This document shows positions 11,298-53,643 of a DNA stretch of 64,000 nt, in pieces (the first letter of the stretch is position 1; every line of letters starts with the position of its first letter). The notes under the pieces were generated by a model, which did no database searches, was not told the DNA's origin, and saw nothing but the letters and a program-made list of their open reading frames with translations. The DNA is from a virus: IMG/VR virus record IMGVR_UViG_3300028840_006907, positions 192,001-256,000 of that record; one strand, given 5' to 3'. The translations under genes were made by a program, and so were the position numbers.

Positions 11298-11305
11298 TTT
11301 GTTGT

Positions 11306-11983
11306 TTGCATTTTTTTAAACACGTTGTAAGATTATATATGGTTTTAAATGATGTTGAAGGTGCGGTCCATCTCATTCATGAGCATGGTGAAAGATTCGA
11401 AGGTTGGTATTTTTCTAAAAATATTTTAGAGAAAAAAGACCTTACACTTAAATATAAAAAGATCCAGTTAACGTACAATTTTAATGTACTGGATTATAAT
11501 TTTCGTTTTGTTATGCCTTCCAGGATAGAGTTCATTGGGGGCCTAATTTCTTATTCAAATGGGGAACGGGAATTAGGGATATTTAGGTTTCCGCGTGATG
11601 CTGATGGTAAGTTTATAGCTCCTATATCTTTGGATAATAAAGAGATAAATGATTACATGAATTTATCAAAGGATGCAATAGATAAATTACTATCTTTAAA
11701 AGAACCTTTAATTTTTGAAGCCTTTAGAATACCTCAATATGGGTTTGAGTTGTTTGACCTAACTCCTGAAATTATTGAGGATATAAGAAAAGACACTGAT
11801 GATGAGTTTGTGGAGTATGTAAAGAGTGTTCCCGACCGCGTCATTAAAGAGAAAACAGCCGAAATCATAAATAAAATTAACTCTGGGATTAATTATCTTT
11901 TAATACTCAGAAATGTCTTGAATCGTCAATGGAAAGACCTAAATGAGGTATCCTTGGCGACAGATGGAATAATACATATATAA
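11306..11983 (+). CDS. hypothetical protein
   Basis: 225-aa ORF. Confidence 0.5.
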   Translation: MHFFKHVVRLYMVLNDVEGAVHLIHEHGERFEGWYFSKNILEKKDLTLKYKKIQLTYNFNVLDYNFRFVMPSRIEFIGGLISYSNGERELGIFRFPRDADGKFIAPISLDNKEINDYMNLSKDAIDKLLSLKEPLIFEAFRIPQYGFELFDLTPEIIEDIRKDTDDEFVEYVKSVPDRVIKEKTAEIINKINSGINYLLILRNVLNRQWKDLNEVSLATDGIIHI

Positions 11984-38000: not shown

Positions 38001-41000
38001 AGGGCGTTTATAGAATCAGGTTTTTTAAGAGTCAGTGACGGTACTACAGCTTCTCCAATACCTTCATGGGGTGCTACTGGTGCCACAGGAAATACTGGGG
38101 CTACAGGATCCACAGGGGCTACAGGATCAGGGACTCAAGGAACAACAGGAGTTCAAGGATCTGCCGGGGCTACTGGAGCTACTGGACCGGCTGGAACTGG
38201 TTCTACAGGAGTCCAAGGTGTCCAGGGTGAAACCGGTATTCAGGGTCTCCAAGGTGATACGGGTGTTAGTTTAGGAGCAACAGGCTTGCAAGGTATCACA
38301 GGTCTCAGGGGATTCACGGGACTGCAGGGTCAAACCGGTGTTGCTGGGGAAACCGGAGTTCAGGGAGTGCAGGGACAAACCGGAGCTTTTGGTGGCCCTC
38401 CAGGAGAAACTGGCGTGCAAGGTGTCCAAGGAAACACTGGAGTACAAGGAACTACTGGAGTTCAAGGATCAACCGGAGTTCAAGGAATTCAAGGTCAGAC
38501 CGGAATTCAGGGAATCCAAGGAAATACTGGAGTACAAGGAATTCAAGGTAATACTGGAGTACAAGGTCAAACCGGAGTAAGTGGAGAAACTGGAGTACAA
38601 GGAACTACTGGAGTTCAGGGTATTCAAGGTCAAACTGGTATAGCAGGTCAGACAGGTATAGCAGGTCAAACCGGAGTTCAAGGAATCCAGGGAATTCAAG
38701 GTCAAACAGGTGCCCAGGGTTTAACAGGAGTAGCAGGTGAGACTGGAGTCCAAGGATCTCAGGGAAATACCGGAGTTCAAGGTATCCAAGGGCATACGGG
38801 AGCTGGGATACAAGGTACTACTGGTGTTCAAGGTTTACAAGGTCAGACTGGCTCTCAAGGTACTACTGGAATTCAGGGAGAAACTGGTGTAGGTATCCAA
38901 GGTCAGACGGGTGTTGCCGGTGTTGATGGCCAAACCGGAATTCAAGGAATCCAAGGAACCACAGGAGTTCAAGGTGAAACAGGAACTCAAGGAATTCAAG
39001 GAAATACCGGAATTCAAGGAACTCAAGGAAGCACAGGAGTTCAAGGAGAAACTGGAGTTGGTGCTCAAGGAACTACTGGAGTGCAAGGAATACAAGGAAA
39101 TACTGGAGTTCAGGGAACAACCGGAGTTCAGGGAATTCAAGGTCAAACCGGTGTTCAGGGAACACAAGGAGAAACAGGTTATATAGATTCTTCCAGTGTT
39201 AATCATAACGCTCTTCTTAATTTAACTGTTGGTGATGACCATACTCAGTATGCTTTTTTAGCTGGTCGTACTGGTGGGCAAACTATAAATGGTGGTGATG
39301 CTGCTTCAGACGTTTTAACTCTTCAAAGTACTACTGATACTACAAAAGGGAACATCATTCTTAATCCTATTAGTGGGGATGTCCCTGGTAAAGTTGGTAT
39401 AGGAGTAACATCTCCGATTTATCAATTACATGTTGGAGAGATTTTAGATGGCGGTACTGTAGGTATATGTATAAATAACCAGTATACTGCAAATGGATCA
39501 GTTGATGAAACTGCTAGTTTAATATATAGATTTGGTAGGCCACTCAGTCCTCAATATAGAGTAGCAGGTCAAGTATTAGTAGGTAAGGAACAGGATTGGT
39601 GGGATTATAATAGTACTGACGCTTATATGGCTTTTCATACTACTCGTGATACAATTTCACGTGAACAGATGAGAATTAATGCTCAAGGTTATGTTGGAAT
39701 AGGTACAACAAATCCCCAAGCTAAGCTTCATGTAACGACATTTGCTCAATTTGATGAAGGCTTTTCAACTAATATCGGTATAGGTGTTACCGCTCCTCAG
39801 GCACAGTTACATGTCGGAGAGAGTGTAACTGATGGAGATGTTTCAATAATTGTGAATAACTGGTCTTGGACTGGAGGGTCTGTAGATGAGACAGCTAGTT
39901 TACAATTCCGTTTTGGGCCTCCTCCAAGTAATTATTCTGCTGGTAAAATTTCTGCTCATAAAACTTTAGATTATATGAGTTTCGATAATAGAGACTCTTA
40001 TATGACTTTTAGTGTTGTAAATAATCAATCTGAAGTTGAGCGTATGAGGATTTTAAATGATGGAAAGGTAGGTATTGGTACAACTGATCCTCAAGAAAGA
40101 CTGCATGTAATTGATAGGGGTCAATTTGATATGGGGCTACAACAACCTATTGGTATAGGTGTAACGGCTCCATTAGCTGAATTACATGTTGGTAATAGTA
40201 CTAATGGTGGTGATGTAGGCATTATTATTAATAACCAATACAATACTACTGGATCAGTTGATGAAACAGCAAGTTTAATTTATAGATTCGGTACAGTAGG
40301 AAGTGCAAATTATCGAGTAGCTGCCAGAATTTGTGCTCATAAAGAATTAGACTGGCAATCTTTTGATAATGTCGATTCAGCTTTAGCTTTTAGGACTACT
40401 CGAAATCAATCTGAAAATGAAAGAATGAGAATAACTAGTGAAGGTGATGTAGGAATTGGTACTGTCACACCTTCAGAAAAATTACATGTAGAAGGTAATA
40501 TTTATACTACTAATGGTTTTCTTGCTGGTGGGAACATCCAAATTGAAGGGGACTTTTTAGGAGGGACTGATGGTAATTCTAATTTAGGCTCTACTTCAAG
40601 AAGATTTAATAACCTTTATATGGCTTCTTCGATAAATTATAATTCTGATCTAACCTTTGATTGTACGGGTACCCATGTAACCCTTACAACTGGTGGTAAC
40701 GTAGGTATAGGAACTACAAATCCCCAAGGATTATTTCATGTTTCTGATGATACCAATGGTGGTGATGTAGGTATTGTTGTTAGTAATCGCTATATTGGTG
40801 GTGGGTCAGTTGATGAAACAGCTAGTATGATTTATCGTTTTGGCCATCCGTTAGGAGTAGCTAATAAAGTTGCAGCCAGAATAAGTGCCCATAAAGAATT
40901 AGATTGGGCAAACTCTAATAATACTGATGCTGCTTTGATTTTCTGGACTACTCGTGATGCTGTTGAACGACAACAGATGAGAATTGATAGCAATGGTTAC

Positions 41001-42053
41001 TTAGGAATCGGTATAACTAATCCTCAGGAAATATTACATGTAGATGGTAATATCGTAGGATCATCTGGTTCTAATTTAGGGTCTGCTGCATTAAGATTTT
41101 CTAATCTTTATTTGGCTTCTTCTATAAACTATAATTCTGATCTTAATTTTGATTCAACAGGAACACATGTCACTTTTACAACAGGTGGTAATGTAGGTAT
41201 AGGTACTACAGATCCGCAAGCATTATTACATGTCTTTGATAGTACTAACGGTGGTGATGTTGAAGTTATAATTACTAATGACTATTATAGTGTTAGTTCG
41301 TTGGATGAAACTACCAGTATAACTTTTCAAAATAGAGGTCACGATGGTAATAGGTATACTGCAAGTAGAATTCTTTGTGGAAAAGAAGGAGATTTTAGTA
41401 TCTCTGATAGAAAAGGTTATCTAGCTTTCCATACAGTTAATCAAAGTTCATTTGAAAGAATGCGAATTACTTATGATGGTAATGTCGGTATAGATACTAC
41501 GGCACCTTTAGATAAGCTTTCTGTCGAAGGTCAAATGTCTGTGACTCTTGCAGGTGATCGAAAATTTAAAGTAGATAGTACAGGACAAATTTATTCCGAT
41601 GCAGGTACATCAATATTTACTCCTGCTGACCTTGCTGAATGGTCAAAGGTAGAGGGGTATCTGGAAGAATATGAGTTAGGTATGGTAGTACAACAATCCT
41701 GTGTAGATTTAACCGTTAAGCTAGCTGATAGCCCTTCTGAGAGAGTATATGGTGTGGTTACAAACCGTGCCACATTTTTGGGAAGTCTTACTGGTATTGA
41801 TAAGAAAATATTAAAAGAATTAACGGATAGTGAGATAGAAGATGAGTTCAATGCCAAAAAAATAGCAATGGTAGGGCATGTTCAAGTTCTGGTAAAGGGT
41901 ACCGTTAATATAGGTCAGTCATTGACTCTTTCTGATAAGAAAGGAATAGCACGGGGAGCTACAACTTTTGAAGAAAAAGCTCTGGCTCTTGGTATTGCAA
42001 GAGAAAGTTATGATTCAACCGATATAGGACTTATTGAGGCGAGATTATTATAA
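35040..42053 (+). CDS. giant fiber-like protein (2337 aa): BNR/Asp-box propeller, collagen-like tract, tandem ~105-aa repeats
   Basis: GTG start after RBS GGAGG; repeated SxDxGxTW-like boxes (TDSGNSW, NDGTSW, TDGTTW, NGGTSW); Gly-X-Y tract about 38065-39180; six repeats containing GSVDETASLIYRFG. Confidence 0.8.
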   Translation: MSEVYQGDYAPNLYNEEKRYYLFQAQQLTNLTDAELRDLHNISNTYVRRTVQAQIGDCAIQDGYKIAENTSDKSNNFLITGGSGTLDDPGMYYLKGYRLFLLGDIAYKDQTDTGTITDDGYTKTILPALTTPTGVTSTLNSLSLSNPTLICCGDTSAIANSSDWGRNWVDRNAMTSQNLNGSSLGDASVGYAVGNVGAVLRTTDSGNSWINIRTSLPTLPTNYQNVNFFDAYFVNSSIGWITGQSGAILKTINDGTSWTVQGSGVTTSDLSGVHGTGLTDVWAVGSSGMVVKTTDGTTWSQQASGTLFNLSRVHAINTLVAYAVGNSGTIIKTTNGGTSWSALTSDTTENLRDVHFTDLNNGWAVGDNGTITRTDDAGSTWDSSTIASVDLRAVTFYDTTGFTAGGSGEIYRTLDNTNWVKYRTDYVYIDFHLAEVSGDATSGSEYIDTSLVDATVGYPSANRLRVVSDVKVSEGWPAPADYTNTDATLQHYIAPLASIERSVGTSDITSANITDLRTVVRTIGEIDAALKDGSIGTSAIADGAITPDKLDSTGDYTMGSLSILGDSSIAGDLTIGGILVVSDYRTSTIMDNLVVRGSAQLGDSTAPYEDSVNIYGNITQVLDSTKIAYDIQTSSTTDASPIIKIVSDSTGSVWHVESKSQTTSSLFDATTQNMGYDFHLNHLGYEGGLFKLRDDASNHTITISKTAPGFRGSVLDVTSNSNDPTINIVNRALSDSTSLSIDQTHGTMITLNTLGDASGIDIYSQGSGRDLHIDHSGTLGIAVDITSSSAQVAMNLVNQMGPAVVITQNGDDEALLVLNKDSTTLGRALEINHRGSDVGLGVYNTGTGMGQLISHVGDSTHPALDIYVAGNEKGPALRINKANDETGEGIRVWNQGFSESLRLIQDRTDSSATVLLIESQSIGYDVSSSNWNIDSSGNIYTAGSITSDSTATVTSSKFAFDSTYYMTSTGMYLDNSGYDSSNPAVAGRAFIESGFLRVSDGTTASPIPSWGATGATGNTGATGSTGATGSGTQGTTGVQGSAGATGATGPAGTGSTGVQGVQGETGIQGLQGDTGVSLGATGLQGITGLRGFTGLQGQTGVAGETGVQGVQGQTGAFGGPPGETGVQGVQGNTGVQGTTGVQGSTGVQGIQGQTGIQGIQGNTGVQGIQGNTGVQGQTGVSGETGVQGTTGVQGIQGQTGIAGQTGIAGQTGVQGIQGIQGQTGAQGLTGVAGETGVQGSQGNTGVQGIQGHTGAGIQGTTGVQGLQGQTGSQGTTGIQGETGVGIQGQTGVAGVDGQTGIQGIQGTTGVQGETGTQGIQGNTGIQGTQGSTGVQGETGVGAQGTTGVQGIQGNTGVQGTTGVQGIQGQTGVQGTQGETGYIDSSSVNHNALLNLTVGDDHTQYAFLAGRTGGQTINGGDAASDVLTLQSTTDTTKGNIILNPISGDVPGKVGIGVTSPIYQLHVGEILDGGTVGICINNQYTANGSVDETASLIYRFGRPLSPQYRVAGQVLVGKEQDWWDYNSTDAYMAFHTTRDTISREQMRINAQGYVGIGTTNPQAKLHVTTFAQFDEGFSTNIGIGVTAPQAQLHVGESVTDGDVSIIVNNWSWTGGSVDETASLQFRFGPPPSNYSAGKISAHKTLDYMSFDNRDSYMTFSVVNNQSEVERMRILNDGKVGIGTTDPQERLHVIDRGQFDMGLQQPIGIGVTAPLAELHVGNSTNGGDVGIIINNQYNTTGSVDETASLIYRFGTVGSANYRVAARICAHKELDWQSFDNVDSALAFRTTRNQSENERMRITSEGDVGIGTVTPSEKLHVEGNIYTTNGFLAGGNIQIEGDFLGGTDGNSNLGSTSRRFNNLYMASSINYNSDLTFDCTGTHVTLTTGGNVGIGTTNPQGLFHVSDDTNGGDVGIVVSNRYIGGGSVDETASMIYRFGHPLGVANKVAARISAHKELDWANSNNTDAALIFWTTRDAVERQQMRIDSNGYLGIGITNPQEILHVDGNIVGSSGSNLGSAALRFSNLYLASSINYNSDLNFDSTGTHVTFTTGGNVGIGTTDPQALLHVFDSTNGGDVEVIITNDYYSVSSLDETTSITFQNRGHDGNRYTASRILCGKEGDFSISDRKGYLAFHTVNQSSFERMRITYDGNVGIDTTAPLDKLSVEGQMSVTLAGDRKFKVDSTGQIYSDAGTSIFTPADLAEWSKVEGYLEEYELGMVVQQSCVDLTVKLADSPSERVYGVVTNRATFLGSLTGIDKKILKELTDSEIEDEFNAKKIAMVGHVQVLVKGTVNIGQSLTLSDKKGIARGATTFEEKALALGIARESYDSTDIGLIEARLL
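38065..39180 (+). repeat. collagen-like GXY triplet-repeat tract (9/18-bp periodic DNA repeat)
   Basis: Continuous GxQ/GxT triplets without proline, e.g. GVQGETGIQGQTG. Confidence 0.85.
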
Positions 42054-42275: not shown

Positions 42276-44027
42276 TTATGCCTTGTGAAATCGAAAACTA
42301 TTATTAAATAAATAACTAGGTTTTGACTCAACTGATCTTCCCATGTATGTTCTGGTTTTTGAGTAGCTTATATTTAAACATTTCTGAGCCCTTGTGCATG
42401 CTACGTAAAATAATCTCTCTTCCTCTTTTTTATCTACAGCAAAACTATGAGGCCATACTCCTTCTTCTACACCTACAACTAGGACTGTATTAAATTCAAG
42501 ACCTTTACTGGCATGAGCCGTTAATAACTTAACCCCATGTCCGGTATCTTCTTCCAGAAATGTACTTGCTAAAACCAGGTCCTCTATGGTTCTAAATTCT
42601 CTGATGATTTCTAAAAATGAAGTCAGCATTGTACGGTCACTATCTTTTTTAATAGTAGTTCTATAATCTGTTTTATATAAGATAGTCTCAACAGCCTCTG
42701 AAGGAGTCATGCCCTTTATTTCATTTAAGATATTTATAAGTCCTCTTATACGGGGCATTTCATAAGCCATAGTTTCTAGATAAGACCAGCCTTCTCGAAG
42801 TAAAATTTCTTTTTTCTTTGCTCCGAATCCACGAGGGGGTACATTTACGATTCGGTTTAAACTTTCTAAATCATCTCTATTCGTACTGGCTTTGAGAAAA
42901 CTCATTAAATCTTTGGGAACTCTACGCTTATAATAAGGAAGGGCACCAACAACTTTATATGGTATGTGTTTACTTGCAAAAGCTCTTTCAAAGAATAAGG
43001 ATCTTGCATTTACGCGAAACAGTATTGCGGTATTTTCGTAATCGTTGGCTCTTATAAGGGCATTGGATATTTTCTCTGCCTCGTCTTCCTGACTATTAAA
43101 TCCGGTGAAAGATATTGATCCTTGGAAAGGGTTTTTAGCAACCATCTGATTACCGTATTGAATGTATTGATTGGCATGTTTTATGATCTCTGGAGAACAT
43201 CTGTAGTTGAAACTTAAGTGACATACAGTCGGTTTATGTAATTCTATAAAATGTTTTATGTTCTCAGGATGGGCACCCCTAAATTGGTAAATGGACTGAT
43301 TAAAATCAGCCACTACAAACAATGTCTTTGAATTTTTTGTGTATAGTTTATTTATAATGTCATATTGAATTAAAGATGTATCTTGAAATTCGTCTACTAA
43401 TAGATGAGGCCATTTTTTTGAGTAAAAATCAGCGCAATCTTTATGTCCTAAACAGTCATTGGCATAAATGAGTAGGTCATCGAAATCACATGCATTATTT
43501 TTTAGAAGAATCTCTTGGTAAGTTTTATATACAAGTAAAAAATTTCCTTCATTCAGTTCTGATGTAAACTGCGAAAGTCTGAATGATTTCCTGACATTAT
43601 CGGACCCCATTGATTTGATATGGCTAATAGCCAAGACATATGTTTTGGGTTCTCCGGGCAATTCCCGAGATTTAATGATTGTTTTTACAATTGATAACTG
43701 ATCACCGTCATCATATATACTAAAATTAGGTTTTATTGGTAAATGCCGTGTAAAATTTCTGATTATCCCTACACATAAACTGTGAATTGTGCTGACTTGC
43801 ATTTTTCCAATAGAGTCACAATGTAACTTTAATCGCTCTTTCATTTCATTGGCTGCTTTATTCGTAAAAGTAATAGCACATATATTATCTGGAGAAATAC
43901 CTTGTTCCATAAGCCTTAAAATCTTGGCTATAAGACATCGGGTTTTTCCTGATCCTGCCGAGGCATTAACCATTGTAGGTGATGCAGCTTCAACGGCTCT
44001 GGTTTGTTCTGTATCTAATGATATCAT
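42276..44027 (-). CDS. UvrD/Rep/PcrA-like SF1 DNA helicase
   Basis: Motif I SAGSGKTR, motif II VDEFQDTS, motif VI TAHASKGLEFNTVLV. Confidence 0.85.
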   Translation of the reverse strand: MISLDTEQTRAVEAASPTMVNASAGSGKTRCLIAKILRLMEQGISPDNICAITFTNKAANEMKERLKLHCDSIGKMQVSTIHSLCVGIIRNFTRHLPIKPNFSIYDDGDQLSIVKTIIKSRELPGEPKTYVLAISHIKSMGSDNVRKSFRLSQFTSELNEGNFLLVYKTYQEILLKNNACDFDDLLIYANDCLGHKDCADFYSKKWPHLLVDEFQDTSLIQYDIINKLYTKNSKTLFVVADFNQSIYQFRGAHPENIKHFIELHKPTVCHLSFNYRCSPEIIKHANQYIQYGNQMVAKNPFQGSISFTGFNSQEDEAEKISNALIRANDYENTAILFRVNARSLFFERAFASKHIPYKVVGALPYYKRRVPKDLMSFLKASTNRDDLESLNRIVNVPPRGFGAKKKEILLREGWSYLETMAYEMPRIRGLINILNEIKGMTPSEAVETILYKTDYRTTIKKDSDRTMLTSFLEIIREFRTIEDLVLASTFLEEDTGHGVKLLTAHASKGLEFNTVLVVGVEEGVWPHSFAVDKKEEERLFYVACTRAQKCLNISYSKTRTYMGRSVESKPSYLFNNSFRFHKA

Positions 44028-44338
44028 TAATTATAATTCCAAAATCTTGTTTTCATACTTATAACTGAAGCACCCGCTACAATGTTAACGAGTAATCCAT
44101 AATTATAAGTATGGTTAATGTTATGTTTCTTTTTTACATCGTAAAGTTTTTTTAATGTTAATACTATTTCAGCTACTTCTAATAATAATGGAACTTCTTT
44201 TATTTCCTCTGAAGACTTGACTACTGGTTTATATAAATCGCTAAAAATCTTTTTAAAATAAACTTCTACCTCTCCTTTATCCGTCTTGAAAAAAATTCGA
44301 TACCTCCCCTTACCATTCTTTTTTAGTACCTCCATCAT
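44027..44338 (-). CDS. hypothetical protein
   Basis: 103-aa ORF coupled to helicase start. Confidence 0.4.
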   Translation of the reverse strand: MMEVLKKNGKGRYRIFFKTDKGEVEVYFKKIFSDLYKPVVKSSEEIKEVPLLLEVAEIVLTLKKLYDVKKKHNINHTYNYGLLVNIVAGASVISMKTRFWNYN

Positions 44339-44416: not shown

Positions 44417-44638
44417 TCATGTTTTATTCTTATTTTTTGAATTGCTCTTTTCATCGATTATATATTTTTTAATAGTATATACCTTTATTATTCCGAGTTT
44501 TTTAAATATATAATCTTGAAATTCTTTTTCTAATTTATCGAAATCATAACTTACTAATTCTAAAGCCCATTTTACCCTGAAATCTTTTTCAGCTAATTGA
44601 ATCAATTTTATTTGAAATTCTGTTTGTGTTAATTCCAT
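44417..44638 (-). CDS. hypothetical protein
   Basis: 73-aa ORF. Confidence 0.35.
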   Translation of the reverse strand: MELTQTEFQIKLIQLAEKDFRVKWALELVSYDFDKLEKEFQDYIFKKLGIIKVYTIKKYIIDEKSNSKNKNKT

Positions 44639-44658: not shown

Positions 44659-44934
44659 CTATATTTTAGTTAATGGCTCGTCGTATTTTTCAAGAGTTTC
44701 ATCTCTTTTAACCAATTTGCAGTTTACAAATTCAGGCATTCTCGGGTCTTTATTAAATGTATCCACTAATTCCTGAGCATCATCTTTAAATAGACAACAT
44801 GCTTCGTGTGGGTCTTTCACGAAATGTGTCCATGAGTCATTCTCTGAACTGCGAATTTTTTTCATAGCATAAAAAGTACCATTCGGGTGTTGGATTAAAT
44901 AATCCTGGCTAGTATCTGTGTAAAAATCGTTCAT
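44659..44934 (-). CDS. hypothetical protein
   Basis: 91-aa ORF. Confidence 0.4.
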   Translation of the reverse strand: MNDFYTDTSQDYLIQHPNGTFYAMKKIRSSENDSWTHFVKDPHEACCLFKDDAQELVDTFNKDPRMPEFVNCKLVKRDETLEKYDEPLTKI

Positions 44935-45089: not shown

Positions 45090-45428
45090 TTAGTCTAAAA
45101 ACTTCTCAATATTTTCTATTGAATTAATGATTTTACCATTTTCTTGTATGAAATAAAATCTTTTTCCACATTTTATACAACTTATTACAGCCATGTTGGG
45201 AACAACTTCTTTAAAATGAAATTGATTATTGATTTGATCTATTACTGATTGCATATTTGAGAAGATGGTATTTCTTTGATATAATGTGAAGACATATTTA
45301 CAGTGAGGGCAGATAATTCGATGAGGATCAACAATTTTTTCCTTATGTTTTTTTATAAGTTCTATGATAAAACTTATAATAATGTAAATACTGAGAAAAG
45401 TCATGGGAAAAATTAATAATTCTTTCAT
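45090..45428 (-). CDS. hypothetical membrane-anchored zinc-ribbon protein
   Basis: N-terminal hydrophobic helix, CPHC ... CIKCGKRF. Confidence 0.45.
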   Translation of the reverse strand: MKELLIFPMTFLSIYIIISFIIELIKKHKEKIVDPHRIICPHCKYVFTLYQRNTIFSNMQSVIDQINNQFHFKEVVPNMAVISCIKCGKRFYFIQENGKIINSIENIEKFLD

Positions 45429-45429
45429 T

Positions 45430-45813
45430 CTAAAGATAATCCTCTATTCGTTTAGCCTTTTCATTCAGATATAATAGGACTTTTTCATCATCTTTGATTT
45501 TACCTTTATCATCGATATATGAAGTCATCTCAATAGATTTGATAGGTTTAACAGTCCCATGATTGATTTCAATTTTTCTATGTACTCCTTTTACTAACAA
45601 GTCAATTTCTTCTTTCTCATCTGAGTCCCAGTGGTACTCTGGGAATAAATAATTAATCTGATTCTTACCATAACCTTTAAATCGACTCAGGATGAAACTG
45701 TTATCAAATTTGTTAAATATGCCTAAAGTCGAATTTCTTGCCATTATAAGATACAGGCAATTGTGTATACATTTATTTAATGGGACATATGATTTAAATT
45801 TCTCTATGCTCAT
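45430..45813 (-). CDS. hypothetical protein
   Basis: 127-aa ORF tightly coupled to E1-like gene. Confidence 0.45.
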   Translation of the reverse strand: MSIEKFKSYVPLNKCIHNCLYLIMARNSTLGIFNKFDNSFILSRFKGYGKNQINYLFPEYHWDSDEKEEIDLLVKGVHRKIEINHGTVKPIKSIEMTSYIDDKGKIKDDEKVLLYLNEKAKRIEDYL

Positions 45814-45828
45814 TGAGTAATATATTTT

Positions 45829-46470
45829 TTATCTATCAAATTCTGAAATTTTCATATCTTTTAAAGTGATTATATAATTCTTTTTAACACCACTCTCAAT
45901 GAATTTGATTAATGACTCCGATGCTACTGCCACTGCCAGAAGTATAATATTCCTGGCCAATGGGTACTCGCATACATCAGGAGCTATCGTGTCTTTTGGG
46001 ACGGTATAAGATTCGTTCCATATTATTTCCGCGTAATCCTGAGACAGCCCGACATGTAAACAGCTCAAACCATTATCCTTACAATATTGATAAACTAATT
46101 TTCGGCTAATATTATTATCAAAAGAATCGATGATAATATTTGGTTTTTTCAAATATTTACTCACAGTAGTTTTATTAAGTTCTTTACTATTGGCATTCAA
46201 AACAGTTTTGGTTGAAGCATATGCTCTCATTTTCATAGTCGCTACTTTGTAGGTACCTTTTTCATTTTGGTTCCAGATCTGGGTACCATTATTGTGAGGT
46301 TCAATTCTGTCTTTATCGATAATTGTAATTTCTTTGAATCCCTGTCGAACTAAATTATCACAAAGATTTGACCCTATTGCTCCGACACCACAGAGTGTAA
46401 TTGGGGTTGTTGATAATTTACCAACTACTTCTTCAGATCGATACATTCTTTCATGTATTAATAAATCCAT
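45829..46470 (-). CDS. ThiF/MoeB-family E1-like adenylyltransferase
   Basis: Rossmann GxGxxG (LCGVGAIGSNL) followed by IIDKDRIEPHN (DxDx-IE-xxN) signature of E1-like enzymes. Confidence 0.7.
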   Translation of the reverse strand: MDLLIHERMYRSEEVVGKLSTTPITLCGVGAIGSNLCDNLVRQGFKEITIIDKDRIEPHNNGTQIWNQNEKGTYKVATMKMRAYASTKTVLNANSKELNKTTVSKYLKKPNIIIDSFDNNISRKLVYQYCKDNGLSCLHVGLSQDYAEIIWNESYTVPKDTIAPDVCEYPLARNIILLAVAVASESLIKFIESGVKKNYIITLKDMKISEFDR

Positions 46471-46474
46471 AATA

Positions 46475-46999
46475 TCATCCTATCCTAGCTATAATGCGAT
46501 CTTTTAACAAGACAAAGGGAATTTCAATACAACCTACAATCCGGTCTTTGTCTCTTTTATATAAATAAAATCTTTGTACTTCTGATTTGATTCCACATAA
46601 TAACGGTTTACCCAAAGCTTTGACCCAACCAGTCATAGTTTTATCATCTAAGGATGAAGGTTCCATTATATTACTTGGATGAGTATGATTAAAACCTACT
46701 ATTTTATTTCTGTCTCTGATTACTTTTTCCCAGTCAAAATCAACTGAACCAGGACCACCAGTGGATTCATAGATTAGTCTACCATAAATCCATTTGCAGT
46801 ATTTTTTACCATATATGATCCAACAATTTTCGTTAATTGTTTGTACTACTTCAATAGCTTCTATTGTTAATTTATTTTTATTGTAAATACCTTTATATGT
46901 TCGACCACATTCTGGGCATGGCATTCTTTGTGTTTCATTTTCTGTAATCCAGCATATATATTTTCCGCACTTACATGTAAATTCACTGCTTTCGGGCAT
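46475..46999 (-). CDS. JAMM/MPN+ metalloprotease with N-terminal zinc ribbons
   Basis: HTH-PSNIMEP-S-SL-D fits JAMM motif HxHx7Sx2D; two CxxC pairs at N-terminus. Confidence 0.7.
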   Translation of the reverse strand: MPESSEFTCKCGKYICWITENETQRMPCPECGRTYKGIYNKNKLTIEAIEVVQTINENCWIIYGKKYCKWIYGRLIYESTGGPGSVDFDWEKVIRDRNKIVGFNHTHPSNIMEPSSLDDKTMTGWVKALGKPLLCGIKSEVQRFYLYKRDKDRIVGCIEIPFVLLKDRIIARIG

Positions 47000-47025: not shown

Positions 47026-47925
47026 CTAATACAACGTTCTACTTATTTGATGAGTGCGTTGACCCTCTTTTATTACAGAAATTAATGCTTTTAAATCATA
47101 GTCTTTATCACCAACATGACCTGTTTCATGGTCGGTTAAACAGATGCCTGCAGTAATAACGTGGTGACTTTGATCTTTAGTAACAATAGTATTAAATTTC
47201 TCTCCATCGATTTCATATGTTACATAAATATGATCCGATTTTTCATCACTGCTCAGGTATTTACCTCCGGCAAATTCTATATCACGTTGAATCTTTGTTT
47301 TTTTCTTTTCTTCAAGTGCTCGTTCACGTTCTTCTTTGATTTTTAAATCGATTTTGTATTTTATGTTAAAAGCAATTTTCTCCTCCAATGTCAGACCAGA
47401 GAATTTTAATTTAGATGGGTCTCTGAATTCTTTCAGGGACTCATTAAGATAATCTGTAATCATCGGATCGGCTGACATATCCATTGAATCAAACCAGATA
47501 TTAGCTCCGTCAAATCGGCATAGACATTTAGAAAATGTTGTAACCATATCATCGAAAAGAAGAACTGGGTATAATTCTGATACTTTTAATCCCAGATGAT
47601 TACTCTTTATCGGGATCCCAAGATAAAAATCTTTCTTTTTATGTACTAAAACCATTCTTATCTTTGGTAAATATTTAAGATAAGATTGAATCTCATCTAT
47701 TTCCGCTAAATCTATTGCTTCAGCCCGTTTATTATCAAGTGCTTTGAATTTGTACCATCCCGGTTCTGTTTTCGGGATGTTTAAGTAATGAATAATTCCT
47801 TGAATACGGATAATGATTCGGTCATTATAATACACAGGAGAAATGATAGTCTTTTCAGTCATCATTTCTTCCTGTTTCCCTATTTTATCAATAAGGTTTA
47901 AAATATTATCTTTTCTTACGGTCAA
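47026..47925 (-). CDS. hypothetical protein
   Basis: 299-aa ORF between JAMM and Ro60-like genes. Confidence 0.5.
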   Translation of the reverse strand: MTVRKDNILNLIDKIGKQEEMMTEKTIISPVYYNDRIIIRIQGIIHYLNIPKTEPGWYKFKALDNKRAEAIDLAEIDEIQSYLKYLPKIRMVLVHKKKDFYLGIPIKSNHLGLKVSELYPVLLFDDMVTTFSKCLCRFDGANIWFDSMDMSADPMITDYLNESLKEFRDPSKLKFSGLTLEEKIAFNIKYKIDLKIKEERERALEEKKKTKIQRDIEFAGGKYLSSDEKSDHIYVTYEIDGEKFNTIVTKDQSHHVITAGICLTDHETGHVGDKDYDLKALISVIKEGQRTHQISRTLY

Positions 47926-49462
47926 AAGATTTCCTCACGGGTAAAGGTGTATCCATGATCTCATATAGAAGATCGAGTTTTGATTTTCTGGATAGCAATG
48001 GAATTAATCCAGGCAATCCATAGTAATCGCTACCTTCAGGTTCATAGTAATCGAAAGGTATTCTAGCTTGTTTTAAATACATGCTGAATTCTTTACGACT
48101 CCATGAACTTGGAATGTAAATAATAGTAATAGTAGGAGTCACATTAAATTTTTTAACATAATTATCCCATATCTCAACGAAAAATGGATTATTATTTTCA
48201 CCTTCATCAGTGACCACTATTATCTGTTCTACATAATAGTTTTTTCTAATAAGGTAATCTAATGCTATACCTATGGAAGTCCCACCATTACTTTTTACAG
48301 GTCTGAAAGCCCTTTCCCAGGCAGACATATTCGGTTCATTAGCTGTGATCTCTCTGGCCATTGTATCAAAAGTAATAGCATAGAGAGGAGCTTCTGTAGC
48401 ACCTGAAATAAGAGCCGCAACATTTTTTCCGACTTCGATGGCTTGAGTCATAGAACCTGATTTATCGATAAAGACTGCAGTAGGTACTTTTATAACACCT
48501 TTCTTTTTAATTTGCTGATCTGCAATTTCATCGAGGATCTTTTGAGATTCCTCATTTTTGATCCGACCTGTTTTCTTTGCTTCTTTGGATTTTAAAGCTG
48601 ATACATTTTTAGCTTTTTTAGCTTTTTCCAATTTAGCCGTAATCAATGTTTTTGTATCCTCATTGTCCATGGCACCACGTTCTTCTAGGGAAGCATAGTT
48701 ATTAATAACTTCCTGTGGAGACATAGCATTGATTAGAGCAATCAGAATTGTAGGAGTGATTTGATCAACCAAACCTACAGCCACCGTATAAGGTACTTTA
48801 TGTTCTATAATCAGCTTTGCCACTTCAGTCGGATTATCAGCTTGTGCTATTTTTTCGAAAACATTTAATTTACTGTCCGTAGGACGTTCATTTCCGAAAA
48901 GAATCTTCTGAGCACGTTCACTAGGTGCTATACGAAGAGTAGCATATAATCCTTTAAGATCTTTTGGACTTTTTAGGGCAATAGCATCAAAAAGATCGTT
49001 GTTGGTTTCAATATATTGAAGAAATTTCTCAACATCCCTTTTAAAGGCAGTAGGAATATTTTTGTAAAGACCTACATTTTTTTCTTCAATTTTTACTTCA
49101 TCGATCATTTTTTTCTTCATTTTTATTTTTTTGCCCGTTTTATTTCTGATCTTTATTTTTTTACCTTTAATAAAACCGACCACACGTCTTTTAAGATATA
49201 CAGGTATTTCCCTGAAGAGGGCTAGCCCAACTTCACGGTTGTCAAGAAATTCATCAACAATAAGTGAACCGATGAATACTTCTTTATGATCCCGAATATC
49301 TCCATTCTTGTAGTACCAGCTTCCAAGGTGGGCATAAAACAGCGGATCTGCTTTTTGTAATTCAAGATGGGTATTTTTTAATTTATCTAGGTCCCGGTGA
49401 GGGCAACTCAGAAATGAGTTAAGCATGTTAACTCTGATATCATTTTCGTTAGCTTGGTTCAT
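47906..49462 (-). CDS. rsr: Ro60/Rsr-like RNA-binding protein (TROVE-like N-terminal region plus vWA domain)
   Basis: C-terminal vWA with MIDAS residues FIDKSGSM, NGGTSIG, VVTDEGEN (same arrangement as Ro60 DVSASM / AGGTD / FTDNE as recalled); N-terminal ~320 aa with ILIAL helix; next to tRNA-mimic RNAs. Confidence 0.6.
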   Translation of the reverse strand: MNQANENDIRVNMLNSFLSCPHRDLDKLKNTHLELQKADPLFYAHLGSWYYKNGDIRDHKEVFIGSLIVDEFLDNREVGLALFREIPVYLKRRVVGFIKGKKIKIRNKTGKKIKMKKKMIDEVKIEEKNVGLYKNIPTAFKRDVEKFLQYIETNNDLFDAIALKSPKDLKGLYATLRIAPSERAQKILFGNERPTDSKLNVFEKIAQADNPTEVAKLIIEHKVPYTVAVGLVDQITPTILIALINAMSPQEVINNYASLEERGAMDNEDTKTLITAKLEKAKKAKNVSALKSKEAKKTGRIKNEESQKILDEIADQQIKKKGVIKVPTAVFIDKSGSMTQAIEVGKNVAALISGATEAPLYAITFDTMAREITANEPNMSAWERAFRPVKSNGGTSIGIALDYLIRKNYYVEQIIVVTDEGENNNPFFVEIWDNYVKKFNVTPTITIIYIPSSWSRKEFSMYLKQARIPFDYYEPEGSDYYGLPGLIPLLSRKSKLDLLYEIMDTPLPVRKSFDRKKR

Positions 49463-49483: not shown

Positions 49484-49750
49484 TCAGGTTTCAATTTTTC
49501 CGAAAGTAGCATTTGGTCTAACTGTAATGTTACCATTTTTATGGTGTTCAACAACTAATTCAGCAAATTCTGATGCTGGTCTATCATAATGATCTACTAA
49601 AGCCAATTTAATTTGTTCACCAGTTATATTATCCGATGTGATCTCGGTTCCTGGTTCAATCCCGAGTTGTTCCCATCTGTCTTCTGGGAAAAGATCTTTG
49701 AGATTAATATCTTCAGTTTGACCATCATACATTATATGGACTTCACTCAT
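49484..49750 (-). CDS. hypothetical small protein (first gene of the Ro60-like operon)
   Basis: ATG at 49750 with RBS AAGGAGG; promoter-like motif upstream; 88 aa. Confidence 0.5.
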   Translation of the reverse strand: MSEVHIMYDGQTEDINLKDLFPEDRWEQLGIEPGTEITSDNITGEQIKLALVDHYDRPASEFAELVVEHHKNGNITVRPNATFGKIET

Positions 49751-49888: not shown

Positions 49889-49917
49889 TTGACACACTTA
49901 AAATTTATGGTTATATT
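49889..49917 (+). promoter_or_regulatory. sigma70-like promoter candidate for the tRNA / structured RNA locus
   Basis: TTGACA, 17-nt spacer, TATATT, ~40 nt upstream of tRNA. Confidence 0.4.
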
Positions 49918-49955: not shown

Positions 49956-50032
49956 GAGAAAATAGCTCAGTTGGTCAGAGCGCGAGATTTAGGTTCTTGA
50001 AGTCTTCGGTTCAATTCCGAATTTTCTTACCA
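49956..50032 (+). tRNA. tRNA, predicted anticodon UAG (Leu-type) with short variable loop and encoded CCA
   Basis: Cloverleaf: acceptor GAGAAAA/TTTTCTT, D arm GCTC-AGTTGGTCA-GAGC, anticodon arm CGAGA-TTTAGGT-TCTTG, 5-nt variable loop, T arm TTCGG-TTCAATT-CCGAA, A73, CCA. Confidence 0.75.
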
Positions 50033-50249
50033 TAAAATTAGCACCTTCAACTTGTGCAGAACTACTTAAACCAAGAAATAAAAGTCAGACATTCTAATTA
50101 TTAGGGCGTACATGGCGTTAAAACCATGCTTCCTGCAGAAATCAGGAAGCAATCTCTGGGCCAAGGCTCAGGGGCGCACTGATGACTTATGTCTGACTTA
50201 ATATAGATTGTAAAGTGTTGTAAAATAAATTTGATCTTTGAAAATTATA

Positions 50250-50429
50250 GGATAATGCCTTCTAACCTGTTGGGCTTACAAATTTTACTGGTTCGACTCC
50301 AGGTTCCGCCTCTCGGTCCTTTTGTAAAGATTGTAAAGGATCAGGAGGCGGAACAAGCCGGGTGGTCTGGCGATTGAATGCAAATCAATTTATTTGAAAT
50401 TAACGCTCTTTTAACTTGGGCATTTATCC
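50250..50429 (+). ncRNA. tRNA-mimic structured RNA unit 1 (Y RNA / YrlA-like candidate)
   Basis: Outer stem GGATAATGCC/GGCATTTATCC then T-run; T-arm-like GGTTCGACTCC; long hairpin GTTCCGCCTC...GAGGCGGAAC; D-arm-like GCCGGGTGGTCTGGC; hairpin ATTGA-ATGCAAA-TCAAT. Confidence 0.55.
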
Positions 50430-50477
50430 TTTTTTATAGTAATTTATAATTTTATATAAAGTGATCTTTGAAAATAT

Positions 50478-50660
50478 GAGGTAAGTGCCTCCTAACATAA
50501 CGGGCTTACAAATTAATAGGGTTCAACTCCCTGTTCCCCCGCCTAAGTCTTTGTCATATAATGATTAAGATTTGGGCGGGGGAACGAGCTGGGTGGTTCA
50601 GCAATCAACGTTTAATTGATGAAAAACATTTTTACGCTCTTTTAACTTAGGCACTTACTC
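50478..50660 (+). ncRNA. tRNA-mimic structured RNA unit 2 (Y RNA / YrlA-like candidate)
   Basis: Outer stem GAGGTAAGTGCC/GGCACTTACTC then T-run; T-arm-like GGGTTCAACTCCC; long hairpin GTTCCCCCGCC...GGCGGGGGAAC; D-arm-like GCTGGGTGGTTCAGC; hairpin ATCAA-CGTTTAA-TTGAT. Confidence 0.55.
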
Positions 50661-50683
50661 TTTTTATTAAATTGAAATTACAA

Positions 50684-50855
50684 GGAGCACCTTCTAACCT
50701 GTTGGGCTTACAAGTTATTCGGGGTTCAAATCCCTGTCCCGGCACTAGGTTGATTCCCTAAAAGTCAACCCAGTGCCGGGATAGCCAAATTGGTAAAGGC
50801 GACTATATTGAACATAGTAAACAAAACTATCTACGCTCTTTTAACTTGGGTGCTC
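50684..50855 (+). ncRNA. tRNA-mimic structured RNA unit 3 (Y RNA / YrlA-like candidate)
   Basis: Outer stem GGAGCACC/GGTGCTC; T-arm-like GGGGTTCAAATCCC; long hairpin TCCCGGCACT...AGTGCCGGGA; D-arm-like GCCAAATTGGTAAAGGC; hairpin ACTAT-ATTGAAC-ATAGT. Confidence 0.55.
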
Positions 50856-50899
50856 TTTATATATTTCTCGCAAAAGGAATACAGGGTGAAACAGGAGTA

Positions 50900-51015: not shown

Positions 51016-53643
51016 ATGACATGTAAAATTTGTAAGAGTAATCTTTCTTATACTTTTGATAAATTTCCAGCTTATAAGTTCTGTCCTTGTTGTAACCTTT
51101 ATTTTCAAGAAGAATTTCCACCAAAGATATTTGAAGGTCCTGATGAGAATAACGGGCATGGTCCCGGTACAGGTCATTTAATGTCTGAGGATGAAAAGGA
51201 AATAAATAAAAATTTCGCTAATGTTCTCTATGATATGTTTATTCCTCGAACTCTTCTAGATATAGGTTGTAAATACCCCTATTTTATTAGTGTGTTAAAA
51301 GATAAAATAGATGTATTAGGAATTGATCCTATTTCAGAGATCTTGAAATATGGAGAAGAATTGGGTGTCTCTGTAATTCGTGATGATTTTGAAGATATGA
51401 ATATTACTCCTTTAAAAAATAAATTCGATTTAATAACTTTGATACATACTTTCGAACATTTTTATAGCCCAATAGAGACCATGAAAAAGATAATCGAATG
51501 TCTTACTCATAGAGGAGTGCTTTTAATAAGAATTCCAAACATAGATATTGAAGGTATAGAAAGAGATTTTACTGATCATCATGTTCAAATCCATCCCTTT
51601 ATATATTCAACACAAGCAATGTATCGAATCGCTCAAAAATTTGATTGTGAAATTTTTAGGGTCGATGATATTATTGGATATGGCCAGAGCGATTTTTATT
51701 TAAGGAAGAAAAGGGACCATCTTTCTTTATCGGTTTGTATGATTGTAAAAGATGAGGAAAAGAATGTTTCTGATTGTTTGGAGAGTATAAAAGATGTAGC
51801 TGATGAAATCATAGTTGTGGATACCGGATCTATAGATAATACCAAAGAAATAGTATCCAAATATACAACAAAGATATATGACTTTAAATGGATTGATGAC
51901 TTTTCTGCTGCTAGAAATCACTCTTTAAGTAAGGCAACGGGTGACTTTATTTTATGGCTTGATGCTGATGATATTGTAGAAAATCCAGAAAAGATTAATG
52001 AAATATTAAAAAATGATGATGCTAAGATATTTAATTTTAATATTAAATATGGAAATGATGTCTTTAGTCAGGCTAGACTATTTAGGAATTTTTATAATAT
52101 AAAATTTTCTGGTAGAGTTCATGAATATCCTGTAATCGATAATTTATATATAAAAGATACTGAAGTTAATGTAATTCATAAAACCGAAAAACATTCAACA
52201 GAAAACCGTTCTGATAGAAATCTCCGTCTCCTTAAAAAAGAATACGAAGATAATCCGAACAATTCCCGGACACTTTTTTACCTGGCAAGTGCTTATAAAG
52301 AACTTACTCGTTGGGATGAAGCTATAGATTTTTATCGAAAATATTTAACTATTTCTATCTGGAAAGATGAGAGATGGATGGCTCAAAAGAATATTGGATG
52401 TATTCTTTCCTGGAATAGAAAATATGAAGAAGCCATTGAAGAATTGAAGAAGGCTATTGAAATAGATGATCGATGGGCTGAGTCATATTATTATATAGCT
52501 GAGTGTTATTTCTATTTAAAAAACCCTCAAGAATGTATAAACTGGTCTTTAAAAGCTATTGAGAAAAAGATGCCCGAATCACCTCTTTGGAAAGAGATCC
52601 CAATTTATAATGACGCACCATACCGTTATCTCTTTGCTTCTTATGGTTCTTTAGGTGATTTTGAGAAAGCATTGCATTATTGTAAGATAGCATCAGAAAA
52701 AGTTCCTGAGGATGAATGGCTTAAGGAAAGAGTCACTTATTTTGAGAATGCTACAAAAGGAGTTCCTGTTGTAGTCGAATGTAATCGGTGGGGGGCTTTG
52801 GGTGATTGTTTAATGACAACTGCATCTTTACGTGCCATTAAGCATAAGATTCCGGGTTGTTTTATAAGATATGTCACCCATCCTAGTATGTTCCCGATCC
52901 TTGAAGGGAATAAGTTTATAGATGAACTTGTATCAGAATCTAAATCTGAGAACTCAGAAAAGGTTTATTTCTCATATCCTGACAGTAAATCTCCTATTAA
53001 AGATGAAGGTTATCCTAATAAGCCTTTGAATCGCCATTTAGTACGTATATTCGCAGAATGTGCTGGTTTAAAAGAATTTGATAATCTAAAGATGGAGTGT
53101 ACTCTTACAAAAGATGAGGAGAAATCAGGTCAGTCATTGAGATCTCGATTTAAGAAATATGTGACTCTTCATATCCATTCGGGTTGGTCTGAGTATAAGG
53201 ATTGGTATAATGATCGTTGGGAGACTGTTGTAGATGAGTTATTTAAAAGAGGTTACGTGGTTGTTCAGCTAGGCCATAAAGATGAGGGTCTCTTAGTTGG
53301 TACTGTGGATTATAGAGGCCATACTATAAAAGAAGCTATCTCTGCAATAAAATATGCTGATATTCATTTAGGAGTGGATTCATTTACAAACCATGCCTCG
53401 GCTACTGTGGGGACTCCTGCAGTTATTTTATTTGGGTCTACTTCTCCAACCGGTTCCGGGTATGATCAGAATATAAACCTTTATAAAGATTTGAAATGTC
53501 AGCCTTGTTATAAAGAATATGCATGGTCTAAGGATAATAAAGGAAAATGTCCTTATAATAAACTATGTATGGATCAGATCCTGGTTCAGGAAGTATTAGA
53601 CGGTTTTATGAGATTAGAAAAAAAATTATTTATTGATGGATAA
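51016..53643 (+). CDS. multidomain glycosyltransferase (Zn-ribbon, methyltransferase-like, GT2, TPR, GT9-like)
   Basis: N-terminal CxxC pairs; LLDIGC methyltransferase-like motif; GT2 core SVCMIVKDEE...EIIVVDTGSIDNT...LWLDADD; TPR-like helices; C-terminal GT9-type LGVDSFTNHASATVGTPAVILFG. Confidence 0.7.
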   Translation: MTCKICKSNLSYTFDKFPAYKFCPCCNLYFQEEFPPKIFEGPDENNGHGPGTGHLMSEDEKEINKNFANVLYDMFIPRTLLDIGCKYPYFISVLKDKIDVLGIDPISEILKYGEELGVSVIRDDFEDMNITPLKNKFDLITLIHTFEHFYSPIETMKKIIECLTHRGVLLIRIPNIDIEGIERDFTDHHVQIHPFIYSTQAMYRIAQKFDCEIFRVDDIIGYGQSDFYLRKKRDHLSLSVCMIVKDEEKNVSDCLESIKDVADEIIVVDTGSIDNTKEIVSKYTTKIYDFKWIDDFSAARNHSLSKATGDFILWLDADDIVENPEKINEILKNDDAKIFNFNIKYGNDVFSQARLFRNFYNIKFSGRVHEYPVIDNLYIKDTEVNVIHKTEKHSTENRSDRNLRLLKKEYEDNPNNSRTLFYLASAYKELTRWDEAIDFYRKYLTISIWKDERWMAQKNIGCILSWNRKYEEAIEELKKAIEIDDRWAESYYYIAECYFYLKNPQECINWSLKAIEKKMPESPLWKEIPIYNDAPYRYLFASYGSLGDFEKALHYCKIASEKVPEDEWLKERVTYFENATKGVPVVVECNRWGALGDCLMTTASLRAIKHKIPGCFIRYVTHPSMFPILEGNKFIDELVSESKSENSEKVYFSYPDSKSPIKDEGYPNKPLNRHLVRIFAECAGLKEFDNLKMECTLTKDEEKSGQSLRSRFKKYVTLHIHSGWSEYKDWYNDRWETVVDELFKRGYVVVQLGHKDEGLLVGTVDYRGHTIKEAISAIKYADIHLGVDSFTNHASATVGTPAVILFGSTSPTGSGYDQNINLYKDLKCQPCYKEYAWSKDNKGKCPYNKLCMDQILVQEVLDGFMRLEKKLFIDG

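Follow-up and report, generated by a model that had tools for sequence, protein, structure and literature searches.

A Ro60-like gene linked with an E1-like adenylyltransferase, a JAMM protease and a ubiquitin-like precursor in a viral genome

We have analysed a stretch of 64,000 nucleotides from a virus (positions 192,001 to 256,000 of IMG/VR record IMGVR_UViG_3300028840_006907), hereafter called the window. In the window, a tightly packed run of minus-strand open reading frames (ORFs) extends from position 49750 down to 42048. Its first part, from 49750 to 45829, where neighbouring genes are separated by gaps or overlaps of at most 26 nucleotides, contains five genes, which encode a ubiquitin-like protein (Ubl), a Ro60-like protein, an uncharacterised protein called X299 here, a JAMM metalloprotease, and an E1-like adenylyltransferase, with a distance of 4 nucleotides between the last two. 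A first-pass annotation, made from the sequence alone, had described an E1 of the ThiF/MoeB type beside a JAMM protease in one minus-strand operon with a Ro60-like gene. This description holds well, since the coordinates and the strand of both ORFs agree exactly with ours, and the families are recovered by their motifs and, for the E1, by Pfam above the cut-off. Window proteins recur on metagenomic contigs of 389–470 kb, which makes a huge phage the source of the window. We have found no near-identical DNA among GenBank phages, and in a scan for promoters and terminators the counts were within chance expectation.

The five genes (Ubl, Ro60, X299, JAMM and E1) very probably constitute one Ro60-linked Ubl-activation module. 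To compare gene neighbourhoods in phages, we took the locus of the 595-kb phage LR756511.1, whose proteins include relatives of both the E1 and the 518-residue Ro60-like protein, together with another 15 loci from huge phages, and used the window proteins as queries against all of their ORFs. The loci were sampled by pattern-based scans. In these 16 loci, wherever the genes are detected, they follow the order Ubl, Ro60, X299, JAMM, E1 on a single strand. Unrelated genes have been inserted at differing places within the phage modules, with the order unaffected. The Ubl orthologues, 80–100 residues long, head the module; they were found by phmmer in 14 of the 16 loci and by profile in L016, while neither phmmer nor a profile detected one in L017. 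These two loci are the most distant ones, and in neither of them was a JAMM detected.

The linkage is also seen in bacterial chromosomes. We scanned one genome per species with a Ro60 profile and obtained 53 loci, from Nostocales and Oscillatoriales cyanobacteria, Pirellulaceae, Obscuribacterales, Myxococcales, KSB1, and others. Module genes are linked in about 30 cellular loci. Where the contig is long enough, the cellular Ro60 is usually accompanied by Ubl, X299 and E1, and X299 often overlaps E1. In Obscuribacterales the order is different, i.e., Ubl-X299-JAMM-E1-Ro60. Most cellular loci are without JAMM, and the Ubls there stop exactly at a Gly. Overall, the module is mobile and patchy in its distribution, occurring in huge phages, filamentous cyanobacteria, planctomycetes and other bacteria. 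That the E1/JAMM pair is meaningfully linked to Ro60, as had been suspected from the window, is therefore supported by 16 phage loci and about 30 cellular ones; the neighbourhood comparison finds the linkage conserved, and the profile searches do not place the ORFs in unrelated families.

Downstream of the E1 gene, the run continues with ORFs of 127, 112, 91, 73 and 103 residues and ends in a UvrD helicase (Table 1). The first-pass annotation had counted UvrD in the operon and had named the 127- and 91-residue ORFs, along with the small ORF heading the run, as possible partners of the E1. Actually, only the heading ORF stands, as the others recur in none of the 16 phage loci and are absent from all related loci. 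We have therefore rejected the 127- and 91-residue ORFs as Ubl or E2, and the 112-, 73- and 103-residue ORFs as parts of the module, none of the five having informative family matches either; UvrD is rejected for want of a counterpart. Judged by this comparison, the window genes downstream of E1 are local passengers.

Table 1. Positions in the window of the module genes, the Y-RNA-like genes and the downstream genes.
Feature	Position	Strand	Size, basis and remarks
Ubl precursor	49484..49750	-	88 aa; conserved C-terminal motif, module head position, natural Ro60 fusions
Ro60-like protein, TROVE + vWA	47906..49462	-	518 aa; Foldseek, MIDAS residues
X299, uncharacterised	47026..47925	-	299 aa; tandem OB folds, invariant Cys
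JAMM/MPN+ metalloprotease	46475..46999	-	174 aa; motif, family conservation and context
Minimal E1-like adenylyltransferase, ThiF/MoeB type	45829..46470	-	213 aa; Pfam ThiF
Y-RNA-like gene copy 3	50244..50429	+	consensus structure, covariance model; divergent from operon
Y-RNA-like gene copy 2	50474..50660	+	consensus structure, covariance model
Y-RNA-like gene copy 1	50676..50859	+	consensus structure, covariance model
UvrD helicase	42276-44027	-	downstream; without counterpart in related phage loci
Small downstream ORFs	45430-45813, 45090-45428, 44659-44934, 44417-44638, 44027-44338	-	none in relatives

The E1 matches the Pfam family ThiF (PF00899) with an E-value of 1.9e-23 and 83.3 bits (cut-off 28.1). 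It also matches NCBIfam models of ThiF and of Cap2-type E1, including the ThiS adenylyltransferase ThiF (NF006395, 2.2e-19), as well as the E1-E2 models of PADLOC (best 3e-16), and its sequence neighbours in the PDB include UBA6, the SUMO E1, TcdA and MccB. The motifs G28-V-G-A-I-G33, D52-K-D54, N60, Q64, K75, D115-x-x-D118-N119 and R123 are all present, and their residues, like Cys167, are each at least 95% conserved among 40 distinct orthologues. The protein is a single Rossmann-type domain that scores above the threshold and carries the GxGxxG, the DxxDN and the Arg, Asn, Gln and Lys residues of the adenylyltransferase superfamily. It is a minimal ThiF/E1 adenylyltransferase. Cys167 is located in DVCEYP (codon 45970-45972), about 50 residues past DxxDN and after the adenylation core, and Y169, two residues further on, is conserved as well. 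The E1 probably forms a thioester on Cys167.

For the protease, the JAMM motif is complete (E57...H105-x-H107-x7-S115-x2-D118), and E57, H105, H107, S115 and D118 are kept in 16 of 16 orthologues, which bears out the JAMM/MPN+ protease with HxHx7Sx2D that had been read from the window. The profile scores are weak: Prok-JAB of Pfam gives 21.9 bits and E=1.6e-4 without reaching its curated cut-off of 25, the best JAB match in PADLOC has E=3.7e-4, Cap3-type isopeptidase models and one phage tail-protein PHROG are matched weakly, and a PDB sequence search returned no match. Since these scores are sub-threshold, the JAMM identity rests on the motif, the family conservation and the context. The window protein has an N-terminal zinc-ribbon extension of ~50 residues (C9-x-C11 ... 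C28-x-x-C31; 46850-46999), which is absent from 11 other aligned phage JAMM orthologues. The LR756511.1 orthologue (L001 10066-10542) has a Cys-rich C-terminal tail, CFHCGKDMNECECA, in place of the N-terminal extension.

The small ORF heading the run ends in R78-P-N-A-T-F-G84 (Gly84 codon 49499-49501), after which follows a 4-residue tail, KIET. All 45 distinct orthologues (45/45) end in the same way, with RPxAx[F/W/Y]G plus 0–4 residues, and Gly84 is invariant in an alignment of 18 sequences, while the tails past it are variable (K, F, TR, KS, GH, RG, SK, and KIET in the window). In addition, three database proteins of 595–599 residues (P0133, P0136 and P0143) are natural in-frame fusions with the Ubl at the N-terminus of Ro60, which implies a physical association of the two. 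We have examined the AlphaFold2 model of P0136, which has an overall pLDDT (predicted local distance difference test score) of 83.6. Residues 1–77 are arranged as beta-beta-alpha-beta-beta with a pLDDT of 72–92 per 10-residue block, mostly 80–92, and just beyond the predicted cleavage site after the Gly the linker is disordered (pLDDT <50). With its Gly motif and variable tails, the fusions and the disordered junction, the ORF behaves as a ubiquitin-like precursor. That is, of the three small ORFs among which a Ubl partner had been suspected, this one is the partner, as judged by its C-terminal RPNATFG-KIET, the beta-beta-alpha-beta-beta core and the Ro60 fusions.

The tails and the protease go together. 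We have counted them in non-redundant loci containing E1. In the loci without JAMM, 20 of 20 Ubls stop at the Gly; in those with JAMM, the Ubl is tailed in 9 of 14 and untailed in 5 of 14. No tailed Ubl was found where the JAMM gene is absent. The association between the presence of JAMM and a tailed or fused Ubl has a Fisher p of 3.8e-5, a statistic ignoring kinship. This association therefore supports JAMM as the Ubl-processing enzyme.

The Ro60-like protein is hardly recognised by sequence. Pfam TROVE matches neither the protein nor members of its family, vWA_Ro60 matches 6 of 28 family members, and the best PDB profile match is the TROVE protein of phage phiLo, collinear and with E=0.043. 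In a Foldseek search of the PDB with the structure model, the top 13 matches are all Ro60/TROVE proteins, aligned along their full length, from Thermus phage phiLo, human, Xenopus and D. radiodurans (E 8e-11 to 2e-8; template modelling score 0.55–0.62; 506–581 columns). The MIDAS (metal ion-dependent adhesion site) is intact, and its residues D333-x-S335-x-S337, T395 and D419 show a conservation of at least 95% over 60 sequences. The modelled fold confirms a Ro60-like protein with a TROVE helical-repeat ring and a C-terminal vWA domain bearing the MIDAS, as the first reading of the window had proposed.

Just upstream of the Ubl operon, on the opposite strand, there are three Y-like RNA paralogues of ~185 nucleotides each. 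They were spotted by eye and then tested with alifold and with a covariance model built from the three copies. The consensus structure has 48 pairs, with compensatory changes in 22 of them, and is composed of a closing stem and a tRNA-like module of T-arm, acceptor hairpin and D-arm; the same permuted tRNA-like design is reportedly found in bacterial YrlA RNAs (as ascribed to Chen et al. 2014). The elements are assigned to the plus strand because of the T-loop orientation and the comparison with locus L002. With the covariance model, most related phage loci and some cellular ones show full-length matches directly adjoining the Ubl gene, unlike with an exact-motif search of the other loci, which gave no match. 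A search of Rfam, at the gathering score and also at E up to 5, gave no match to any family, Y RNA and YrlA included. By their predicted structure and position, the three elements are Y-RNA-like and are the putative cognate Y RNAs of the Ro60-like protein.

Other RNA features were observed around these elements. A tRNA-Leu gene (anticodon TAG; 49956-50032, plus strand) lies between the Ubl operon and the Y-like RNAs, and upstream of it is a sigma-70-like site (49889-49917, 11/12 matches), a kind of site no commoner here than by chance. The tRNA gene is followed by a structured element (50076-50200), also between the operon and the Y-like RNAs and on the strand of the RNAs. The two ends of this element can pair with each other (read on the minus strand, GTCAGACAT...ATGTCTGAC), and the Y-like covariance model matches it weakly, with an E of about 0.009. 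Among the tRNAs that ARAGORN predicts upstream of the Ubl gene in relatives, some have odd anticodons (Asn-ATT, SeC-TCA, and one kind called undetermined); in L002, its calls Asn-ATT and Gln-TTG fall inside Y-like elements. Several phages have large arrays of tRNAs on the flanks of the module (L001, L003, L007 and L017 are among the loci with RNA-related items), and tmRNA genes are located just past E1 in L012 (17054-17402) and L018 (18964-19364).

X299 belongs to a family of 893 clusters at 50% identity with no Pfam domain. In its model (pLDDT 85.7), an N-terminal helix precedes tandem OB barrels, after which a long helix leads to a small alpha/beta domain at the C-terminus. The best structural matches of the barrels are the RNA-binding S1/cold-shock modules of RsgA, PAN, eIF1A, Dis3L2 and the exosome subunits Rrp4/Rrp40. 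In the C-terminal domain, a short helix is followed by a meander of four strands, and the loop after it, which holds G260-I-C262-L (Cys262 codon 47140-47142), leads into a further helix. Gly260 and Cys262 are found without exception (100%) in 132 members that are 21–44% identical to the window protein. The reading frames of X299 and E1 overlap in cyanobacteria; fusions of Ubl with X299, or of X299 with E1, do not occur among 150 listed representatives. A fold search with X299 found no E2 and hhalign gave no significant E2 match, and a UBC-fold E2, with the UBC fold, the catalytic Cys and the HPN motif, is not found in the module. The earlier remark that no E2 is evident is thus right for the canonical UBC fold, and at the place expected for an E2 stands the Cys-bearing OB-fold protein. 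With its GICL motif and its order of structural elements in the model, the C-terminal domain is reminiscent of an E2 core. An E2-like role is our hypothesis, and we regard X299 as a candidate Ubl carrier of this kind or a candidate RNA-binding adaptor.

What might such a module do? The proposal that an E1 plus a JAMM marks a Ubl-conjugation or sulfur-carrier system is supported at that level. Between the two, we lean somewhat towards protein conjugation of the Ubl, with X299 as carrier or adaptor, in the service of the Ro60 ribonucleoprotein. The chemical steps, the part of X299 as an E2-like protein, and the target are inferred as follows. First, JAMM would cut the Ubl precursor (...RPNATFG-KIET), or the Ro60 fusion in some phages, after Gly84; it probably reverses the conjugates too. 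Second, the E1, presumably a homodimer like ThiF/MoeB, would adenylate Gly84 with ATP-Mg, and the thioester would then probably form on its Cys167. Third, the Ubl would be handed to Cys262 of X299, which would serve as E2-like carrier and as substrate adaptor, with the tandem OB folds holding RNA or the Ro60-RNA complex. Fourth, the Ubl would be attached to a lysine, either in a component of the Ro60 particle or in one of its clients; Ro60, X299, and host RNA-decay or ribosomal proteins are candidates.

Several points weigh against conjugation as just described. The Ubl gave no significant match to ThiS, MoaD, ubiquitin, Urm1, NEDD8 or SUMO by hhalign and no match in Pfam and PDB sequence searches, so we have rejected it as a sequence member of the ThiS/MoaD/ubiquitin/Urm1 group, and its beta-grasp fold is suggested by the order of secondary structures in one AlphaFold2 model. 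Its terminus is an aromatic residue (always F, W or Y) followed by Gly, not Gly-Gly. The association of tails with JAMM, moreover, was computed regardless of relatedness, and cyanobacteria make up most of the 20 cases without JAMM. Tail trimming by JAMM also takes place in sulfur-carrier pathways (QbsD/QbsE, Mec/CysO), and most cellular versions do without JAMM, as ThiS/ThiF-type systems do.

Some of these points suit a sulfur carrier, the main rival reading, which we consider unlikely and yet worth setting out. The Ubl would then resemble ThiS, MoaD, TtuB or Urm1, and after adenylation by the E1 and conversion into a thiocarboxylate by a host donor it would thiolate RNA handled by Ro60. The OB folds of X299 would hold this RNA, i.e., the Y-like RNA, its tRNA-like module or a client, and Cys262 would relay a persulfide. 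The E1 fits such a role as a single small ThiF/MoeB-like domain with ThiF (NF006395, as above) among its best curated matches, though its Cap2-type similarity in PADLOC and NCBIfam, together with the Ubl-Ro60 fusions, suits conjugation better. Similarly, the JAMM-less cellular modules with untailed Ubl are like ThiS/ThiF, but the penultimate Ubl residue is always F, W or Y, and the sulfur carriers known to us end in Gly-Gly. The partners in the module are RNA-binding proteins and tRNA-like RNAs, and no E2 or E3 fold was found, as a sulfur carrier would have it; however, the phage and cellular loci show no rhodanese, cysteine desulfurase or PP-loop thiolase conserved alongside the module, and X299 has no recognisable nucleotide-activating domain.

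E1-only conjugation, as reported for the archaeal SAMP/UbaA system, in which the Ubl goes from the E1 to lysines with no other enzyme taking part, seems to us a little less probable still. X299 would then be the main target or an RNA-binding adaptor, and its invariant Cys would serve otherwise, e.g., in metal binding or redox sensing. This agrees with the constant presence of X299 beside E1, with the failure to detect an E2 fold in it, and with the set of E1, Ubl and JAMM without E2, which is also the SAMP layout. On the other hand, a 100% invariant Gly-x-Cys within a helix, a four-strand meander, a Cys loop and a helix looks like an active site rather than a target, and K250, the lysine near Cys262, is not conserved across the wider X299 family.

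Quite improbable, in our estimate, is a variant in which RNA itself is the acceptor of the Ubl. By analogy with aminoacyl-tRNA synthetases or MccB, the acyl-adenylate of Gly84 would go on to an ester with a ribose hydroxyl, at an RNA end threaded through Ro60 or at the tRNA-like module of a Y-like RNA, with the OB folds and Cys262 of X299 acting as relay. If true, protein and RNA would be joined covalently in a tag that serves RNA quality control or the hijacking of host RNA decay. Lastly, although JAMM weakly matches Cap3-type isopeptidase models and a phage tail-protein PHROG and the E1 is similar to the Cap2 E1 domain, there is scarcely any chance that the two are unrelated neighbours of Ro60 serving another phage process (countering host CBASS/Bil conjugation, or tail assembly), since one order is kept across the phage loci despite insertions, the linkage is also cellular and occurs there in rearranged order, Ubl and Ro60 are fused in some genomes, and neither CD-NTase nor effector nor tail genes are conserved alongside E1 and JAMM; because of this synteny, coincidental adjacency is effectively excluded.

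Various other genes were observed in and around the modules. In Nostocales, a bL12 paralogue (PF00542, 7.8e-24; Tolypothrix tenuis PCC 7101, L036 8328-8720) and a conserved 242-residue protein of unknown family (L036 7427-8155) lie between Ubl and Ro60, and each is also present in 12–13 other, mostly Nostocales loci. The placement of the bL12 paralogue hints at a ribosome-related client or target. In one phage clade, an AAA_33-type kinase and a homologue of poly(ADP-ribose) polymerase with WGR, PARP_reg and PARP domains directly follow the module (L002 10633-12514, L003 9896-11792; identical match pattern in L007-L009), and in L004 an SPFH/Band_7 protein (10079-11476) is located between JAMM and E1. 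In the window itself, an 875-residue ORF (51016-53643, plus strand) starts right after the Y-like RNA array; by eye, it looks multi-domain, in that the N-terminus resembles a methyltransferase and the middle a glycosyltransferase, TPR-like repeats come next, and the C-terminus resembles a heptosyltransferase. Two giant plus-strand ORFs of 2337 and 3078 residues (35040-42053 and 54251-63487) are dominated by collagen-like G-x-x triplet repeats (GxQGxTG), with a local G+C content of 0.44–0.49 vs about 0.33, and are presumably fibre or surface proteins of the huge phage.

Ro60 and Y RNAs are conserved from bacteria to humans, while to our knowledge the regulation of the Ro60 particle is poorly understood and no role is known for its vWA/MIDAS. 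Ubl activation tied to Ro60 would provide a concrete regulatory or effector arm for this ribonucleoprotein. The module would be a fourth prokaryotic Ubl layout beside CBASS, Bil and Bub, and a phage-encoded one; it would offer a candidate non-UBC carrier from an unannotated family of about 900 clusters, and it would be the first prokaryotic Ubl system aimed at RNA metabolism. In humans, Ro60 and the ubiquitin ligase Ro52/TRIM21 are partner autoantigens, a pairing that a prokaryotic Ro60-Ubl link would unexpectedly echo.

Among known systems, the bacterial Rsr/YrlA (with PNPase) and the phiLo Ro60 (with Yrl1/2) have the same TROVE ring and vWA/MIDAS and likewise have tRNA-like Y RNAs adjacent to them. 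Phage-encoded Ro60 with Y-like RNAs has already been described (PMC12135203; PMC7824862). The Ro60 clade of the window is far in sequence from the described ones, as seen from the Pfam and PDB searches above (no TROVE match; E=0.043). In the literature that we searched, we have found no link of Ro60/TROVE to a Ubl, E1, JAMM or X299, though an earlier mention is still possible.

The antiphage systems CBASS (Cap2/Cap3), Bil (BilABCD) and Bub (BubA-E) are alike in having an E1, for which the closest hidden Markov models are Cap2-type, a JAMM peptidase, and a patchy, mobile distribution. In addition, the Ubl of BubAB is made as a fusion and released by a peptidase, which parallels the Ubl-Ro60 fusions of the window family. 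The differences are substantial. Type II CBASS has a CD-NTase with an effector and an E2-E1 fusion, neither of which is seen in the window operon and related loci; the E1 there is one domain, vs E2-E1 or IAD-AAD-CYS in antiphage Ubl pathways, and a UBC-fold E2 is absent. Bub is characterised by a crossover-loop Tyr, a Ser-type E2 and a DUF6527 protease, whereas in the window a conserved Cys is present instead and DUF6527 was not found. Unlike all three, the window module is phage-encoded and tied to Ro60, and PADLOC assigns it to its generic E1 and JAB models only. That is, the parts are of known kinds (a ThiF-type E1, a JAMM, a Ro60 with Y RNA), and the features that define CBASS, Bil or Bub are lacking.

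A further lead comes from the Atg8/Atg12-type modifiers. Atg8 ends in ...FG and Atg12 in ...WG, a short tail is cut off, and the E1 is non-canonical and homodimeric. The aromatic-Gly end and the tail removal are like those of the window Ubl; the protease is a Cys protease vs the JAMM of the window, no sequence relation was detected, and the module shows no sign of a lipid acceptor.

Closer to the window module are the archaeal SAMP/UbaA/HvJAMM1 and the Thermus TtuB/TtuC systems, which share with it a small protein with a C-terminal Gly, of beta-grasp type there and putatively so in the window, an E1 of MoeB/ThiF size, and a JAMM, and which similarly have no UBC-type E2 or E3. Their Ubls end in Gly-Gly, unlike the [F/W/Y]-Gly of the window Ubl, with no detectable sequence similarity; the window E1 (213 residues) is shorter than theirs; and the window module includes Ro60, Y-like RNAs, and an OB-fold protein bearing a Cys, none of which is part of SAMP or Ttu. 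Both systems carry out protein conjugation as well as sulfur transfer to RNA or cofactors, the same options as considered here for the window module. Overall, it is the archaeal SAMP/UbaA/JAMM system that the module most closely resembles in its layout.

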